Of a stretch of 64,000 bases of DNA, positions 57,987 through 64,000 are shown one piece after another. Where the stretch lies: assembly GCF_056712565.1 (NCBI RefSeq), contig NZ_CM160072.1; one strand, given 5' to 3'. A program made the position numbers and the translations under genes. The notes below the pieces were generated by a model that did no database searches, was not told the DNA's origin, and saw nothing but the letters and a program-made list of their open reading frames with translations. The stretch's first letter is position 1. Every line of letters begins with the position of its first letter.

Positions 57987-59117
57987 ATGGCTAAGCAAGA
58001 TTATTACGAGATTTTAGGCGTTTCCAAAACAGCGGAAGAGCGTGAAATCAAAAAGGCCTACAAACGCCTGGCCATGAAATACCACCCGGACCGTAACCAG
58101 GGTGACAAAGAGGCCGAGGCGAAATTTAAAGAGATCAAGGAAGCTTATGAAGTTCTGACCGACTCGCAAAAACGTGCGGCATACGATCAGTATGGTCATG
58201 CTGCGTTTGAGCAAGGCGGCATGGGCGGCGGCGGTTTTGGCGGCGGCGCAGACTTCAGCGATATTTTTGGTGACGTTTTCGGCGATATTTTTGGCGGCGG
58301 ACGTGGTCGTCAACGTGCGGCGCGCGGTGCTGATTTACGCTATAACATGGAGCTCACCCTCGAAGAAGCTGTACGTGGCGTGACCAAAGAGATCCGCATT
58401 CCGACTCTGGAAGAGTGTGACGTTTGCCACGGTAGCGGTGCAAAACCAGGTACACAGCCGCAGACCTGTCCGACCTGTCATGGTTCTGGCCAGGTGCAGA
58501 TGCGCCAGGGTTTCTTTGCCGTGCAGCAGACCTGTCCACACTGTCAGGGCCGCGGTACGCTGATCAAAGATCCGTGCAACAAATGTCATGGTCATGGTCG
58601 TGTTGAGCGCAGCAAAACGCTGTCCGTTAAAATCCCGGCAGGGGTGGACACTGGAGACCGCATCCGTCTTGCGGGCGAAGGTGAAGCGGGTGAACACGGC
58701 GCACCGGCAGGCGATCTGTACGTTCAGGTTCAGGTTAAACAGCACCCGATTTTCGAGCGTGAAGGCAACAACCTGTATTGCGAAGTCCCGATCAACTTCG
58801 CTATGGCGGCGCTGGGTGGTGAAATCGAAGTACCGACCCTTGATGGTCGCGTCAAACTGAAAGTGCCTGGCGAAACCCAGACCGGTAAGCTGTTCCGTAT
58901 GCGCGGTAAAGGCGTCAAGTCTGTCCGCGGTGGCGCACAGGGTGATTTGCTATGCCGCGTTGTTGTCGAAACACCGGTAGGTTTGAACGAGAAGCAGAAA
59001 CAGCTGCTGCAAGAGCTGCAAGAAAGCTTTGGTGGCCCAACCGGCGAGCACAACAGCCCGCGTTCAAAGAGCTTCTTTGATGGCGTGAAGAAGTTTTTTG
59101 ACGACCTGACTCGCTAA
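57987..59117 (+). CDS. dnaJ: Hsp40 co-chaperone DnaJ
   Basis: ORF-track frame 57957..59117; ATG at 57987 gives [40 protein letters not shown] (J domain), Gly/Phe-rich linker, four CxxCxGxG zinc-finger repeats; 376 aa. Confidence 0.99.
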
Positions 59118-59194
59118 CCTCCCCAAAAGCCTGCCCGTGGGCAGGCCAGGGTAAAAACCAGGGTGCGTTGAAGATATGCGAGCACCTGTAAAGT

Positions 59195-59214
59195 GGCGGG
59201 GATCACTCCCCGCC
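59195..59214. terminator. Stem-loop between dnaJ and the hokC 3' end
   Basis: ggcggggatcactccccgcc perfect inverted repeat; could terminate dnaJ and/or form the 3' structure of the hok mRNA. Confidence 0.5.
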
Positions 59215-59221
59215 GTTGCTC

Positions 59222-59374
59222 TTACTCGGATTCGTAAGCCGTGAAAACAGCAACCTCCGTCTGGCCAGTTCGGATGTGAACCTCACAGAGGTCTTTTCTC
59301 GTTACCAGCGCCGCCACTACGGCGGTGATACAGATGACGATCAGGGCGACAATCATCGCCTTATGCTGCTTCAT
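59222..59374 (-). CDS. hokC: Type I toxin HokC/Gef (small membrane toxin)
   Basis: Translation MKQHKAMIVALIVICITAVVAALVTRKDLCEVHIRTGQTEVAVFTAYESE (50 aa), Hok/Gef family. Confidence 0.93.
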   Translation of the reverse strand: MKQHKAMIVALIVICITAVVAALVTRKDLCEVHIRTGQTEVAVFTAYESE

Positions 59375-59431
59375 TGCTCTCTTCTCCTTGACCTTACGGT
59401 CAGTAAGAGGCACTCTACATGTGTTCTGCAT
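59222..59431 (-). CDS. mokC: MokC, overlapping reading frame translationally coupled to hokC
   Basis: Same frame, upstream ATG at 59431 giving MQNTCRVPLTDRKVKEKRA-MKQHK... (69 aa). Confidence 0.8.
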   Translation of the reverse strand: MQNTCRVPLTDRKVKEKRAMKQHKAMIVALIVICITAVVAALVTRKDLCEVHIRTGQTEVAVFTAYESE

Positions 59432-59477
59432 ATAGGGGGCCTCGGGTTGATGGTAAAATATCACTCGGGGCTTTTCT
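59423..59477 (+). ncRNA. sokC: SokC antisense RNA (approximate position)
   Basis: Placed only by the expected position relative to the mokC start in hok/sok loci; not verified by promoter or structure. Confidence 0.4.
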
Positions 59478-59985
59478 CTATCTGCCGTTCAGCTAATGCC
59501 TGAGACAGACAGCCTCAAGCACCCGCCGCTATTATATCGCTCTCTTTAACCCATTCTGTTTTATCGATTCTAATCCTGAAGACGCCTCGCATTTTTGCGT
59601 AATCAATCTTTAGTACATTGTTTATTTTAACTCTTATGTGCGTTTTCATTTACAAAAGTTGAGATTATGAACAAGAGGTTTAAGTTATGCCTGAATGGTG
59701 AGTTATTACTGGAGAAAGTAATAGAAGATACAAAATATTCTTGTACAGAATTGAATTTTCTTTTTGTGAGGAAAAATGTTTATAAATCAATGAGTGATAT
59801 TTAAAATCGACACACTTTTTGAAACACGATACCTCCACACCCGGGGGTAAAAGTAATCTGCGATCTCCATCACGCTTTGCCATTCACCTTTAAATATACT
59901 TTCTGAGTCGTTCTTAATCAAAATGAATTATCTGATGTATTGATTTCTATGGAACCATAAAAAAAATGAATGGAGAGCATATTAT

Positions 59986-60747
59986 ATGTCTGCCAAAAGA
60001 CGGCTTCTTATTGCGTGTGCCCTGACAACGATTTTCTATCACCTTCCTGCATATTCTTCATTAGAATATAAAGGTTCCTTTGGCTCAATAAATGCAGGTT
60101 ATGCTGACTGGAATAGTGGCTTCATTAACACTCATCGTGGTGAAGTATGGAAAGTGACTGCAGACTTTGGTGTGAATTTTAAAGAAGCCGAGTTTTACTC
60201 ATTTTATGAAAGCAATGTGCTTAACCATGCCGTAGCGGGGCGTAATCATACCGTTTCTGCTATGACACATGTCAGACTCTTTGACTCCAATATGACTTTC
60301 TTTGGCAAGATCTATGGTCAATGGGATAACTCATGGGGTGACGATCTTGATATGTTTTATGGTTTGGGCTACCTCGGCTGGAATGGTTCATGGGGGTTTT
60401 TTAAACCGTATATTGGATTACATAATCAATCTGGAGACTACGTCTCAGCCAAATATGGACAAACAAATGGCTGGAATGGTTATGTTGTTGGCTGGACAGC
60501 AGTATTACCTTTTACGTTATTTGACGAAAAATTTGTTTTATCTAACTGGAATGAAATAGAACTGGACAGAAATGATGCCTATGCGGAACAACAATTTGGT
60601 CGGAATGGGCTAAATGGCGGTTTAACAGTAGCCTGGAAGTTCTATCCTCGCTGGAAAGCCAGTGTGACGTGGCGTTATTTCGATAATAAGTTGGGCTACG
60701 ATGGTTTTGGCGATCAAATGATTTATATGCTTGGTTATGATTTCTAA
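59986..60747 (+). CDS. Tsx/OmpK-family outer-membrane channel
   Basis: 253-aa ORF; signal peptide MSAKRRLLIACALTTIFYHLPAYS; aromatic/Gly-rich beta-strand pattern (WNGSWGFFKPYIG; WNGYVVGWTAV); C-terminal ...MLGYDF resembling Tsx ...GYNF; RBS tggagag; AT-rich. Confidence 0.7.
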   Translation: MSAKRRLLIACALTTIFYHLPAYSSLEYKGSFGSINAGYADWNSGFINTHRGEVWKVTADFGVNFKEAEFYSFYESNVLNHAVAGRNHTVSAMTHVRLFDSNMTFFGKIYGQWDNSWGDDLDMFYGLGYLGWNGSWGFFKPYIGLHNQSGDYVSAKYGQTNGWNGYVVGWTAVLPFTLFDEKFVLSNWNEIELDRNDAYAEQQFGRNGLNGGLTVAWKFYPRWKASVTWRYFDNKLGYDGFGDQMIYMLGYDF

Positions 60748-60766
60748 TTTTCATCAGGGAATAATT

Positions 60767-62260
60767 ATGCAGAAAACATTAATGGCCAGTTTGATCGGCC
60801 TTGCAGTTTGCACAGGGAATGCTTTTAATCCAGTCGTAGCTGCCGAGACTAAACAACCCAATTTAGTCATCATTATGGCGGATGATTTAGGCTATGGTGA
60901 TTTAGCAACATATGGACATCAGATCGTTAAAACACCCAATATTGACAGGCTTGCCCAGGAGGGCGTCAAATTTACTGACTACTATGCACCAGCTCCCTTA
61001 AGTTCTCCTTCGCGGGCGGGGTTATTAACGGGGCGGATGCCATTTCGTACCGGCATACGTTCATGGATCCCAACGGGAAAAGATGTGGCATTAGGGCGTA
61101 ATGAACTCACGATTGCTAATCTACTCAAAGCGCAAGGGTATGACACGGCCATGATGGGTAAGCTGCATCTGAATGCAGGCGGCGATCGCACCGATCAGCC
61201 GCAGGCAAAAGATATGGGCTTTGATTACTCACTGGTTAATACGGCGGGTTTTGTTACCGACGCCACGCTGGATAACGCTAAAGAACGCCCGCGTTATGGC
61301 ATGGTTTACCCGACAGGCTGGCTACGTAACGGGCAACCCACTCCACGAGCCGATAAAATGAGCGGTGAGTATGTCAGTTCGGAAGTCGTCAACTGGCTGG
61401 ATAACAAAAAGGACAGCAAGCCTTTCTTCCTCTATGTTGCTTTTACCGAAGTGCATAGCCCCCTGGCTTCGCCCAAAAAATACCTCGACATGTACTCACA
61501 ATATATGAGCGCGTATCAGAAGCAGCATCCTGATTTATTTTATGGCGACTGGGCAGACAAACCCTGGCGTGGTGTGGGGGAATATTATGCCAATATCAGC
61601 TATCTGGATGCACAGGTTGGAAAAGTGCTGGATAAAATCAAAGCGATGGGTGAAGAAGATAACACAATCGTTATTTTTACCAGTGATAACGGTCCGGTAA
61701 CGCGTGAAGCGCGCAAAGTGTATGAGCTGAATTTGGCAGGGGAAACGGATGGATTACGCGGTCGCAAGGATAACCTTTGGGAAGGCGGAATTCGTGTTCC
61801 AGCCATTATTAAATATGGTAAACATCTACCACAGGGAATGGTTTCAGATACACCCGTTTATGGTCTGGACTGGATGCCTACTTTAGCGAAAATGATGAAC
61901 TTCAAATTACCTACAGACCGTACTTTCGATGGTGAATCGCTGGTTCCTGTTCTTGAGCAAAAAGCATTGAAACGCGAAAAGCCATTAATTTTCGGGATTG
62001 ATATGCCATTCCAGGATGATCCAACCGATGAATGGGCGATCCGTGATGGTGACTGGAAGATGATTATCGATCGCAATAATAAACCGAAATATCTCTACAA
62101 TCTGAAATCTGATCGTTATGAAACACTTAATCTGATCGGTAAAAAACCAGATATTGAAAAACAGATGTATGGTAAGTTTTTAAAATATAAAACTGATATT
62201 GATAATGATTCTCTAATGAAAGCCAGAGGTGATAAACCAGAAGCGGTGACCTGGGGCTAA
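60767..62260 (+). CDS. Periplasmic sulfatase, Ser-type (S-x-P-S-R)
   Basis: ORF-track frame 60731..62260; ATG at 60767 with RBS aggga; signal peptide MQKTLMASLIGLAVCTGNAFNPVVAAE; N-terminal IIMADDLGYGD and signature APAPLSSPSRAGLLTGR; 19 bp after the channel gene. Confidence 0.85.
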   Translation: MQKTLMASLIGLAVCTGNAFNPVVAAETKQPNLVIIMADDLGYGDLATYGHQIVKTPNIDRLAQEGVKFTDYYAPAPLSSPSRAGLLTGRMPFRTGIRSWIPTGKDVALGRNELTIANLLKAQGYDTAMMGKLHLNAGGDRTDQPQAKDMGFDYSLVNTAGFVTDATLDNAKERPRYGMVYPTGWLRNGQPTPRADKMSGEYVSSEVVNWLDNKKDSKPFFLYVAFTEVHSPLASPKKYLDMYSQYMSAYQKQHPDLFYGDWADKPWRGVGEYYANISYLDAQVGKVLDKIKAMGEEDNTIVIFTSDNGPVTREARKVYELNLAGETDGLRGRKDNLWEGGIRVPAIIKYGKHLPQGMVSDTPVYGLDWMPTLAKMMNFKLPTDRTFDGESLVPVLEQKALKREKPLIFGIDMPFQDDPTDEWAIRDGDWKMIIDRNNKPKYLYNLKSDRYETLNLIGKKPDIEKQMYGKFLKYKTDIDNDSLMKARGDKPEAVTWG

Positions 62261-62308
62261 CCTGATAATCATAATAAATGTAATGTATGCCATTTAGGGC
62301 TATGCCCG

Positions 62309-62346
62309 CCTGATTCAGTGCTACGCATTGAATCAGGTTCTTTTCG
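62309..62346 (+). terminator. Rho-independent terminator after the sulfatase gene
   Basis: cctgattcagtg-ctacgc-attgaatcagg hairpin followed by ttcttttcg. Confidence 0.65.
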
Positions 62347-62388
62347 CGTTGAACAATATCAAGATACGGCTATTCGCAGGGAGTGGAT

Positions 62389-63648
62389 ATGTTTACCAAC
62401 GTAAATGTTGATTGTTGCAAAACACCAGGATGTAAAAACCTGGGGTTGCTGAATAGCCAGGATTATGTCGCACAGGGTAAAAATATTTTATGCCGTGAAT
62501 GTGGTTACTTGTTTCCAGTGATATCTGAACAGTCGCTTAATATTTATCGTAATATTGTGAATCACTCCTGGAGAGGTTTGATTTGCCAATGTTCAACTTG
62601 CGGAGGCACGTCCCTCAAAAAATATGGATATTCTGCACAAGGCCAGAGAAGAATGTATTGCCATCATTGTGAGAAAACATTTATCACTCTGGAACATGTA
62701 ATTACCACACCACGAGGAGCCCTGTTAGCATTGATGATTGAGCAAGGGGAGGCACTTGCGGATATCAGAAAGTCATTACTTCTTAACAGCACTGGACTTA
62801 GCCGTGAACTGTTAAAATTAGCGCGTGAAGCAAACTATAAAGAAAGTCGACAGTGTTTCCCAGCTTCTGATATTACCCTGAGTACCCGCGCTTTTCGCGT
62901 CAAGTATAATGGTAGCAATAACTCTCTTTATGCTCTTGTTACCGCAGAAGAACAAAGCGGCAGGGTGGTTGCCATCTCAACCAATTACTCCCCATCTGCC
63001 GTAGAGCAACATTATCAATACACATCGAACTATGAAGAGCGTATGTCTCCAGGGACGCTGGCACATCATGTCCAGCGCAAAGAGTTACTTACTATGCGGC
63101 GGGATACCTTGTTTGATATTGATTACGGCCCGGCAGTTTTACATCAAAACGATCCGGGAATGTTGGTAAAACCGGTTCTTCCGGCATATCGTCATTTTGA
63201 ACTGGTCAGAATACTGACCGATGAGCATTCCAACAACGTTCAGCATTACCTTGATCACGAATGCTTTATATTGGGCGGCTGCCTGATGGCTAATTTGCAG
63301 CATATTCATCAAGGTCGCTGCCATATTTCCTTTGTCAAAGAGCGCGGTGTGGCACCCGCCACCATTGATTTTCCACCGCGATTATTCCTTAGTGGTGGGG
63401 TACGAAATAATGTCTGGCGTGCATTTTCTAACCGCAATTATTCAATGGCTGTATGCAATCTCACTGGCAGTAAGAAAGTCCGCGAGATGCGGCATGCAAC
63501 ATTGAACAGTGCGACGCGTTTTATCCACTTTGTGGAGAACCATCCTTTCCTTATATCATTGAACCGAATGTCTCCTGCGAATGTCGTTTCTACATTAGAT
63601 ATCCTCAAACATCTGTGGAATAAAAAACTAGAGCATGGAACAATTTAA
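62389..63648 (+). CDS. Hypothetical cysteine-rich protein with two N-terminal transposase-type zinc ribbons
   Basis: ORF-track frame 62383..63648; ATG at 62389 preceded by gcagggag RBS; 419 aa; ribbon 1 CCKTPGC-x19-CREC, ribbon 2 CQCSTCGG-x17-CHHCEKTF (G-x-Q-R-x-x-C-x-x-C-x-K-T-F), followed by about 300 aa with no motif I can assign. Confidence 0.6.
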   Translation: MFTNVNVDCCKTPGCKNLGLLNSQDYVAQGKNILCRECGYLFPVISEQSLNIYRNIVNHSWRGLICQCSTCGGTSLKKYGYSAQGQRRMYCHHCEKTFITLEHVITTPRGALLALMIEQGEALADIRKSLLLNSTGLSRELLKLAREANYKESRQCFPASDITLSTRAFRVKYNGSNNSLYALVTAEEQSGRVVAISTNYSPSAVEQHYQYTSNYEERMSPGTLAHHVQRKELLTMRRDTLFDIDYGPAVLHQNDPGMLVKPVLPAYRHFELVRILTDEHSNNVQHYLDHECFILGGCLMANLQHIHQGRCHISFVKERGVAPATIDFPPRLFLSGGVRNNVWRAFSNRNYSMAVCNLTGSKKVREMRHATLNSATRFIHFVENHPFLISLNRMSPANVVSTLDILKHLWNKKLEHGTI

Positions 63649-63882
63649 TTATTACTTTTCCGAATAATTTCTTCAGAAATCTTGACATTAGACTATGATT
63701 AATGGGGTTTAAGGTCATCAGCCGCCGCTTTCGGGCATCAAAAACTCATCTCTCGCTGATGGCGCAATTCTTTTAATAGATCGTAAAAAGCGAGCTATTC
63801 CTACACTATAATCTGATTTTAACGATGATTCGTGCGGGGTAAAATCGTGAAAACGATCTATTCACCTGAAGAGAAATAAAAA

Positions 63883-64000
63883 GTGAAACATCTGCATCGA
63901 TTCTTTAGCAGTGATGCCTCGGGAGGCATTATTCTCATTATTGCCGCTGTATTAGCGATGATTATGGCCAACAGCGGTGCAACCAGTGGATGGTATCACG
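63883..64000 (+). CDS. nhaA: Na+/H+ antiporter NhaA, N-terminal fragment; runs off the right edge
   Basis: GTG at 63883 gives [39 protein letters not shown], matching the NhaA N-terminus as I remember it. Confidence 0.9.

Follow-up and report, generated by a model that had tools for sequence, protein, structure and literature searches.

Tsx (PF03502, TC 1.B.10; PDB 1TLW and 1TLY) is the nucleoside-specific outer-membrane channel of E. coli and the receptor for phage T6 and colicin K. Substrate-specific uptake proteins of the outer membrane, such as LamB, ScrY, CymA and KdgM/NanC, are encoded in catabolic operons, and sulfate esters are admitted by the TonB-dependent SftP in Pseudomonas putida and by SusCD in Bacteroides sulfatase loci. 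To our knowledge, the sulfatase operons atsBA of Klebsiella and ydeNM and aslAB of E. coli contain no dedicated outer-membrane channel, and we know of no description of how sulfo-conjugate anions enter through the enterobacterial outer membrane. Here, we analysed a gene pair in a 64,000-nucleotide (nt) stretch of DNA from an extraintestinal pathogenic E. coli (contig NZ_CM160072.1 of NCBI RefSeq assembly GCF_056712565.1; hereafter the window), which consists of a gene for a putative Tsx-family outer-membrane channel and a gene for a periplasmic sulfatase (Table 1). With moderate confidence, the two are considered to be the first genes of a conserved periplasmic sulfate-ester module, where small esters would enter through the channel and be hydrolysed, and whose Escherichia version would be reduced and matured in trans. 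The two genes, the sulfatase structure and the island that carries them have all been annotated, solved or noted in the literature before, and the searchable literature appears to contain no description of how the module is built, of the sulfatase-linked Tsx subfamily or of the switch from cysteine to serine with maturase loss.

Gene contexts were gathered by exact-protein look-ups and by a scan of one genome per species, with five query proteins located by tblastn. A sulfatase orthologue (59–98% identity) adjoins a channel orthologue (49–90% identity) in 23 of 23 loci from other species, and at least 11 genera are represented, namely Escherichia (four species), Citrobacter, Kluyvera, Kosakonia, Phytobacter, Atlantibacter, Franconibacter, Buttiauxella, Klebsiella (Klebsiella spallanzanii), Salmonella and Vibrio. 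Ten loci adjoin nhaA as in E. coli, and others are found at different sites, such as beside deo genes in Vibrio. As the adjacency is kept at different sites and in different orientations, it survives both relocation and rearrangement, and the functional coupling of the channel to the sulfatase is strongly backed by this conservation of gene order.

Clustering of the flanking open reading frames (ORFs) of 18 loci identified the channel, the sulfatase and a zinc (Zn)-ribbon protein of about 415 amino acids in 18/18, a radical S-adenosylmethionine (SAM)/SPASM protein of the anaerobic sulfatase-maturating enzyme (anSME) type in 14/18, an aryl-sulfotransferase (PF05935) in 8/18 and a 5'-nucleotidase-like protein in 5/18. 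No glycoside hydrolase, sugar transporter, sugar kinase or inner-membrane permease recurs in these 18 loci. By gene content, the full module comprises the channel, the sulfatase, the anSME and the Zn-ribbon protein, together with the aryl-sulfotransferase in some loci, and is probably an uptake-and-desulfation system for small sulfate esters. The window contains a reduced module of channel, sulfatase and Zn-ribbon protein, with neither anSME nor aryl-sulfotransferase. A first-pass annotation of the window had proposed that channel and sulfatase form an import-and-desulfation module; their coupling is borne out by the synteny, but the module is larger and only starts with this pair, and the E. 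coli copy has no maturase and carries serine at catalytic position 79 of the sulfatase.

The channel gene, called identically in RefSeq (locus tag UTI89_RS00090) with a stop codon at 60745–60747, encodes a remote member of the Tsx family, as seen solely via the family profile and the predicted fold. The Pfam Tsx hidden Markov model (HMM; PF03502) matches the protein at 52.7 bits (E 6.7e-14; gathering score 27.2 bits), the aligned part being residues 105–253 only (the C-terminal 60%), and the same family is the precomputed assignment on all full-length channel homologues. The AlphaFold2 model, for which 22 homologues were used as input, has 12 strands and a mean predicted local distance difference test (pLDDT) score of 90.5, and its best Foldseek match among solved structures is Tsx 1TLW (E 1.7e-7, template modelling (TM) score 0.66, 14% identity), with NanC and OmpG, also small specific channels, ranking next. 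The family named in the first-pass annotation is therefore upheld by both the HMM and the beta-barrel prediction. The N-terminus (MSAKRRLLIACALTTIFYHLPAYS followed by S) reads by inspection as a Sec-type signal peptide ending at AYS before that serine, with a model helix at residues 3–18, and the C-terminal residue F253 is nearly invariant among the homologues. A phmmer search and a profile of the 22-sequence clade against PDB chain sequences retrieved nothing at E ≤ 1, and hhalign gave no significant relationship between the clade and K-12 Tsx (probability 2%). The best NCBIfam match of the channel is PRK11528 (120 bits, below its cut-off of 282), through which a relationship to K-12 YdiY was considered and then dropped, as BLASTP against YdiY shows no similarity. 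The 90%-identity protein cluster that holds the channel (window positions 59986–60744) also includes 497-amino-acid sulfatases and is represented by one of them, probably owing to chaining via fused ORF calls, and the exact channel sequence is missing from the homologue search matches because it is clustered with these sulfatases.

The sulfatase is a family S1 (formylglycine) enzyme with about 98% identity to PDB 3ED4, an entry from structural genomics that is unpublished and described as "putative arylsulfatase from E. coli". Its next solved relatives are about 30% identical and are a mix of steroid sulfatase, arylsulfatase A and carbohydrate sulfatases. A lipoprotein signal (LAVC) was considered for its N-terminus and rejected, since the cysteine is not conserved and is replaced by tyrosine in Kosakonia and Phytobacter. 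The enzyme contains the signature (C/S)-x-P-x-R-x4-TG as SSPSRAGLLTG, starting at residue 79, the residue that must become formylglycine. Position 79 is Ser (SSPSR) in 7/7 Escherichia sequences (the window, three other E. coli alleles, E. albertii, E. whittamii and Escherichia sp. MOD1), but Cys (CSPSR) in 18/18 non-Escherichia orthologues, and it is the sole column in the alignment of 25 sequences that is invariant within both groups yet different between them. The other canonical active-site residues (D39, D40, R83, K132, H134, H230, D307, N308 and K334) are conserved in 25/25 sequences. As read from this alignment, the catalytic Cys codon of Escherichia became a Ser codon (TGT to AGT), and the change coincides with the absence of an adjacent maturase.

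No anSME was found by tblastn in the channel–sulfatase locus of Escherichia genomes, and none is encoded anywhere in the 64-kb window. A search of 5426 complete E. coli genomes with the DNA of the Citrobacter maturase gene gave no match to an island-type anSME except for 64 bp, which is the conserved intergenic region after the sulfatase gene and is present in 1048 E. coli genomes. This distribution suggests that Escherichia handed sulfatase maturation to an anSME of the core genome. The most plausible trans maturase may be YdeM; YdeN, its natural partner encoded next to it in K-12, is also of the Ser type (SGPSR), YdeM is 43–46% identical to the module anSMEs, and ydeM is found in 5334/5426 complete E. 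coli genomes. AslB is the alternative candidate. The window sulfatase itself is only 25% identical to YdeN. Laboratory E. coli is reported to convert Cys precursors and not Ser precursors (PMC6189696), and a contrary case has been published (PMC8379841).

Despite Ser79 and the loss of the maturase, the island genes are under strong purifying selection in Escherichia. The ratio of nonsynonymous to synonymous substitution rates (dN/dS) of the sulfatase is 0.023–0.050 in comparisons among E. coli, E. albertii, E. whittamii and Escherichia sp., where dS reaches 0.89 (E. coli versus E. albertii); the channel has a ratio of 0.04–0.10 within E. coli and the Zn-ribbon gene one of about 0.1. The island ORFs are intact in every complete genome inspected. 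The channel–sulfatase pair is present in 1273/5426 complete E. coli genomes (about 23%), always chromosomal and single-copy; well-known strains of B2 or extraintestinal pathogenic E. coli (ExPEC), namely UTI89, S88, APEC O1, Nissle 1917 and ATCC 25922, are among the matches listed, and the exact channel protein occurs on at least 1000 contigs.

Allelic divergence is mosaic. Between the window allele, which is of the sequence type 95 (ST95) kind, and the common B2 allele (L040/L041), dS is 0.55–0.61 for the channel, 0.13 for the sulfatase and 0.004–0.01 for the Zn-ribbon gene, which suggests that the channel gene was replaced by recombination. The channel gene also contains a homopolymer tract (G5T6A3) at which frameshifts recur: in the E. 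albertii type strain T6 has become T5, giving a truncated channel of 190 amino acids, and 190-amino-acid E. coli variants with a +1 frame switch at the same tract are found in a public collection. Pseudogenisation could be behind these frameshifts, as could sequencing error or a surface protein that is switched on and off.

The gene layout is that of an operon, with both genes on the same strand, a short gap, no terminator or promoter between them and a terminator-like element downstream, from which channel and sulfatase may be taken to be co-transcribed. The first-pass annotation had the channel gene ending 19 bp before the sulfatase ribosome-binding site; the figure of 19 is correct, but it is the distance from the channel stop to the ATG at 60767, the start accepted by RefSeq, and the Shine–Dalgarno (SD) sequence AGGGA lies 8 nt past the stop. 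A consensus scan, in which overall counts were no higher than in shuffled sequence, detected no promoter-like or terminator-like site on the + strand from 59807 to 61609, and the junction RNA (60700–60800) folds no better than its shuffles (z = −0.12), in agreement with the absence of a terminator noted earlier. A junction of 17–27 nt with a conserved SD sequence occurs in 15 of 16 co-directional loci compared, the window included, L018 being not resolved.

The + strand has a single terminator-like site from the channel start to the next gene, at 62308–62338, and it is followed by the run UUCUUUUC. It is part of a tandem hairpin composed of GGGC-N3-GCCC (62297–62307), a 14-bp stem (62308–62338) and a U-run (62339–62346), with a folding z of −3.27 and no shuffle of 200 as good. 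Compensatory changes keep the pairing in 9/18 pairs of the two hairpins across 10 species, so that the tandem hairpin is a selected element. Hairpins and U-run are kept whether the anSME gene or the Zn-ribbon gene comes next (window; L008–L015, L024 and L027), and in loci with a maturase its start codon lies about 10–25 nt past the U-run, leaving no room for a promoter. Since the element is retained even with a maturase start so close downstream, it is more likely to act as an intra-operon attenuator than as the end of the operon, which amends the previous designation of this site as the only terminator of the unit: it is the only such site, but a unit probably does not end there.

Upstream of the channel gene, two conserved boxes were recognized. 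Box 1, a putative regulator site, lies 140–178 nt upstream of the channel in Escherichia, Kosakonia, Phytobacter, Citrobacter, Salmonella and Klebsiella spallanzanii. Box 2 is a perfect TGTGATA-N4-TATCACA in Kosakonia and Phytobacter, its ATCAC half is invariant in a nine-species alignment, and the exact palindrome occurs once per locus, upstream of the channel only, in the five loci given in Table 1; a strict search for the box 2 pattern missed most loci. The candidate −10 hexamer TATACT was not flagged by the consensus scan because no −35 element is present. The centre of box 2 is about 28 nt upstream of this hexamer as counted by hand, a spacing suggestive of class-II-like geometry, and the region as a whole resembles an activator-dependent promoter. 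CRP and FNR were considered as binders of the palindrome and rejected for now, as its half-sites are arranged as TGA-N8-TCA versus the N6 consensus of both regulators.

Two observations concern the loci with divergent genes. Visual inspection alone tentatively placed a box-2-like sequence upstream of the sulfatase operons in these loci as well, which would imply co-regulation where co-transcription is absent. In the divergent loci (Salmonella/Citrobacter braakii type), a 5'-nucleotidase-like gene follows the channel gene, and two aryl-sulfotransferase paralogues flank all of these loci but L020.

Table 1. Positions of the features of the channel–sulfatase locus in the window and of related features in other loci
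Feature	Position	Strand	Remarks
Box 1, ACAy-N3-5-yTGAmAC	59808..59827	+	About 175 nt before channel ATG; conserved across genera
Box 2, operator-like palindrome, degenerate in E. coli	59858..59874	+	CTGCGATCTCCATCACG; cross-genus alignment
Candidate −10 hexamer TATACT of channel promoter	59895..59900	+	Read from sequence; aligns with TAAACT in other genera
Tsx-family outer-membrane channel gene	59986..60747	+	253 aa; Pfam PF03502, predicted fold, RefSeq "OmpK"
G5T6A3 homopolymer tract in channel gene	60392..60405	+	Recurrent frameshift site; allele comparison
Channel–sulfatase junction	60748..60766	+	19 nt, unstructured, without promoter or terminator match; SD AGGGA at 60756–60760
Periplasmic S1 (formylglycine) sulfatase gene	60767..62260	+	497 aa; PF00884, 201.8 bits; Sec-type signal peptide
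Codon 79 (AGT, Ser), formylglycine precursor in SSPSRAGLLTG	61001..61003	+	Ortholog alignment
Tandem hairpins and U-run, putative intrinsic terminator or attenuator	62297..62346	+	Scan match, folding, covariation
Cytoplasmic double-Zn-ribbon protein gene	62389..63648	+	419 aa; fourth module member, 18/18 loci, Escherichia to Vibrio
Exact box 2 palindrome in other loci	L008 7876–7893; L011/L012 7877–7894; L014 1695–1712; L027 7805–7822		
Loci with Ser79 beside the window	L015, L024, L026, L040–L042		18 others with Cys
Loci with divergent channel and sulfatase genes	L003/L004, L020, L021, L023, L025		
Gene of sister-clade channel P0077	L037 and L039 6001–6735; L038 4764–5498		

In the proposed mechanism, a regulated promoter upstream of the channel would give one transcript across the 19-nt junction, and the hairpin and U-run after the sulfatase would stop or attenuate most transcripts, resulting in lower expression downstream. 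The 12-stranded Tsx-type barrel would admit small anionic sulfate esters, probably planar or aromatic, across the outer membrane, with host phenolic sulfo-conjugates as candidate solutes, and the Sec-exported formylglycine sulfatase would then hydrolyse them in the periplasm to sulfate and aglycone. As the module contains no inner-membrane transporter, the chemistry is expected to be periplasmic. In Escherichia, where the radical-SAM maturase is deleted and the catalytic Cys is changed to Ser, activity would have to depend on a maturase encoded elsewhere. A bolder proposal is that the distinct Tsx subfamily is a dedicated aryl-sulfate-ester channel of an undescribed periplasmic sulfo-conjugate system of Enterobacteriaceae and Vibrio, whose other parts would be the formylglycine sulfatase, its radical-SAM maturase, a domesticated-transposase regulator and often an aryl-sulfotransferase, and in which Escherichia switched from Cys to Ser at the loss of the maturase and YdeM or AslB took over; this is regarded as tentative and rather doubtful in its entirety.

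Several points weigh against the sulfate-ester module as read here for E. coli. The channel gene and the sulfatase operon are divergent and 555–620 bp apart in five species (Salmonella, three Citrobacter-type genomes and K. spallanzanii), which entails separate transcription, so that co-transcription does not define the system; in the window, co-transcription is deduced purely from the layout. The sequence of the sulfatase does not decide between aryl and sugar esters, as its relatives at about 30% identity span both. The island is absent from 4153/5426 complete E. coli genomes (76%), the half-site of the box 2 operator is degenerate in E. coli, truncated or inactivated channel alleles recur in a minority of genomes (nonsense, 31-amino-acid deletion, frameshifts), and the Ser79 enzyme might be immature under many conditions, given the reported conversion of Cys precursors only (PMC6189696).

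The last four of these points are also arguments for the main rival explanation, which holds that the E. coli copy is a decaying remnant with an inactive sulfatase and a dispensable channel, so that no import and desulfation takes place here. C79S hits the very residue to be converted to formylglycine, E. coli is reported to modify Cys only, the inactivating channel alleles are independent, the locus and window contain no anSME and the 5426 genomes no island-type one, and the patchily present island has been described as a volatile module. In Lescat et al. (2014), the "putative cerebroside sulfatase" region is listed among several volatile modules that surround nhaAR, and its function was not studied there (PMC4182557). 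This explanation is nevertheless considered unlikely, being contradicted by the strong purifying selection: the low dN/dS of the sulfatase (0.02–0.05, at dS up to 0.89) was obtained in species which already have Ser79 and whose locus contains no anSME. None of the nine other catalytic residues has changed, C79S being the sole lineage-fixed change, the ORFs are intact in the complete genomes inspected, and the core genome encodes a Ser-type sulfatase together with its anSME, the YdeN/YdeM pair.

The reading of the channel as the entry protein of the sulfatase module is further informed by its closest relatives. A sister clade with 33–37% identity, represented by nine loci (L028–L036), has no sulfatase within 8 kb, and P0077, the one member of this clade whose gene context was examined, is found in three places between a ribokinase-like regulator and a nucleoside hydrolase with a CNT nucleoside transporter. 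Channel specificity seems to track the operon in these two clades, one in sulfatase and the other in nucleoside contexts; Tsx-family channels appear to be embedded in operons and matched to their substrates, with the present clade as the sulfatase-matched one. The sulfatase-linked and nucleoside-linked clades are distinguished by 44 conserved positions, at five of which the former has gained a basic residue (R51, H81, R86, R97 and H146 versus Y, D, Q, Y and Q), and the net charge of the sulfatase-linked channels is less negative. Such basic residues are consistent with an anionic solute.

These comparisons also bear on the possibility that the channel is an ordinary nucleoside pore like Tsx/OmpK, or mainly a phage or colicin receptor, with the neighbouring sulfatase being meaningless. 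The Pfam Tsx match, the nucleoside operons of the sister clade, the deoCABD-like genes adjoining the Vibrio module and the 5'-nucleotidase-like gene after the channel in the Salmonella-type arrangement would all fit a nucleoside pore, and the very divergent channel alleles of E. coli (dS 0.55 versus 0.004 for the Zn-ribbon gene) with their recurrent frameshifts are as expected under phage or immune pressure. Such a pore is nonetheless improbable, as the channel stays next to the sulfatase in 23/23 loci whether the genes are co-directional, divergent or relocated, departs from the nucleoside-linked channels at the 44 conserved positions including the basic ones, and shows no significant sequence similarity to Tsx, which E. 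coli already has.

As for the substrate of the sulfate-ester module, the gene content points away from glycans and towards sulfate esters that are small and probably aromatic. Both the gut and urine are rich in phenolic and steroid sulfo-conjugates of the host. Import and desulfation of sulfated sugars or glycan fragments (mucin or glycosaminoglycan pieces), a substrate that had been suggested for the pair earlier, would agree with the many carbohydrate sulfatases (GalNAc-6-sulfatase, carrageenan sulfatases) among the close structural homologues of the enzyme, with the life of B2 E. coli on mucosal surfaces and with the cerebroside label of Lescat et al., but it is hardly to be expected of loci in which glycoside hydrolases, sugar transporters and sugar kinases are not among the recurring genes, an aryl-sulfotransferase is the additional enzyme that recurs, and the predicted 12-stranded Tsx-type barrel would be narrow and, from general knowledge of the Tsx structure, better suited to flat small molecules than to oligosaccharides.

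The remaining member of the module in the window, the Zn-ribbon protein, matches the N-terminal Zn-binding domain of IS1/IS1595. It contains eight invariant cysteine residues forming two CxxC...CxxC ribbons and no invariant aspartate, and consequently no DDE triad. Its model has a pLDDT of 72, and the best fold matches are weak (ISCth4 transposase and RNase H-like proteins; E about 5e-3, TM below 0.3). A reasonable guess from these features is that it may be a DNA-binding regulator derived from a domesticated transposase.

The region 59100–64000 of the window is 100% identical to the chromosomes of the B2/ExPEC E. coli strains UTI89, S88, APEC O1 and NU14. The gene order is dnaK, dnaJ, mokC/hokC with sok RNA (minus strand), the channel gene, the sulfatase gene, the 419-amino-acid gene and nhaA, and the three island genes are named "outer membrane protein OmpK", "sulfatase family protein" and "hypothetical protein" in RefSeq, respectively. 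Directly upstream of the island, the type I toxin gene mokC/hokC with its sok antisense RNA (59222–59524, minus strand) is an ordinary known feature; the sok antitoxin RNA (RF01794, 116.9 bits; 59372–59524) was the sole match in an Rfam search. Regarding published work on the locus, nothing was found beyond the label given by Lescat et al. and a methods mention of 3ED4, and the literature search returned no study in which a Tsx-family protein is assigned to sulfate esters.

The finding is incremental in that the genes were annotated and the sulfatase structure solved, with the function being deduced here. If this is correct, the Tsx family, which is known for nucleosides, would gain a new class of substrate through a member that serves a sulfatase, and the island could contribute to the niche fitness of the B2/ExPEC strains that carry it. 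The combination of Cys79Ser, maturase loss and purifying selection provides a testable handle on sulfatase maturation in E. coli, for which the published reports on Ser-type enzymes conflict. The switch from Cys to Ser would then be a natural experiment on this maturation and on why B2/ExPEC strains keep the system.

Compared with the known systems, the channel shares with Tsx the length of about 250 amino acids, the monomeric 12-stranded barrel (predicted for the channel), the family HMM, the signal peptide and the C-terminal phenylalanine, but it is only 14% identical in the structural alignment, lies in a sulfatase context instead of among nucleoside genes and contains clade-specific basic residues. 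The OmpK-like channels of enterobacterial nucleoside operons (33–37% identical) belong to the same family, are of the same size and likewise have their genes directly upstream of periplasmic or uptake enzymes, whereas they are paired with a nucleoside hydrolase, a CNT transporter and a ribokinase-like regulator, with no sulfatase nearby. Klebsiella atsBA and E. coli ydeNM and aslAB combine an S1 sulfatase (C/S-x-P-x-R) with an adjoining radical-SAM/SPASM maturase, as does the full module outside Escherichia, in contrast to the E. coli island, which has no maturase. With LamB, ScrY, CymA, KdgM/NanC, SftP and SusCD, the module would have in common, from general knowledge of these systems, a dedicated entry protein co-encoded with periplasmic enzymes for the same solute, the difference being that the entry protein here is predicted to be a passive 12-stranded channel of the Tsx type.

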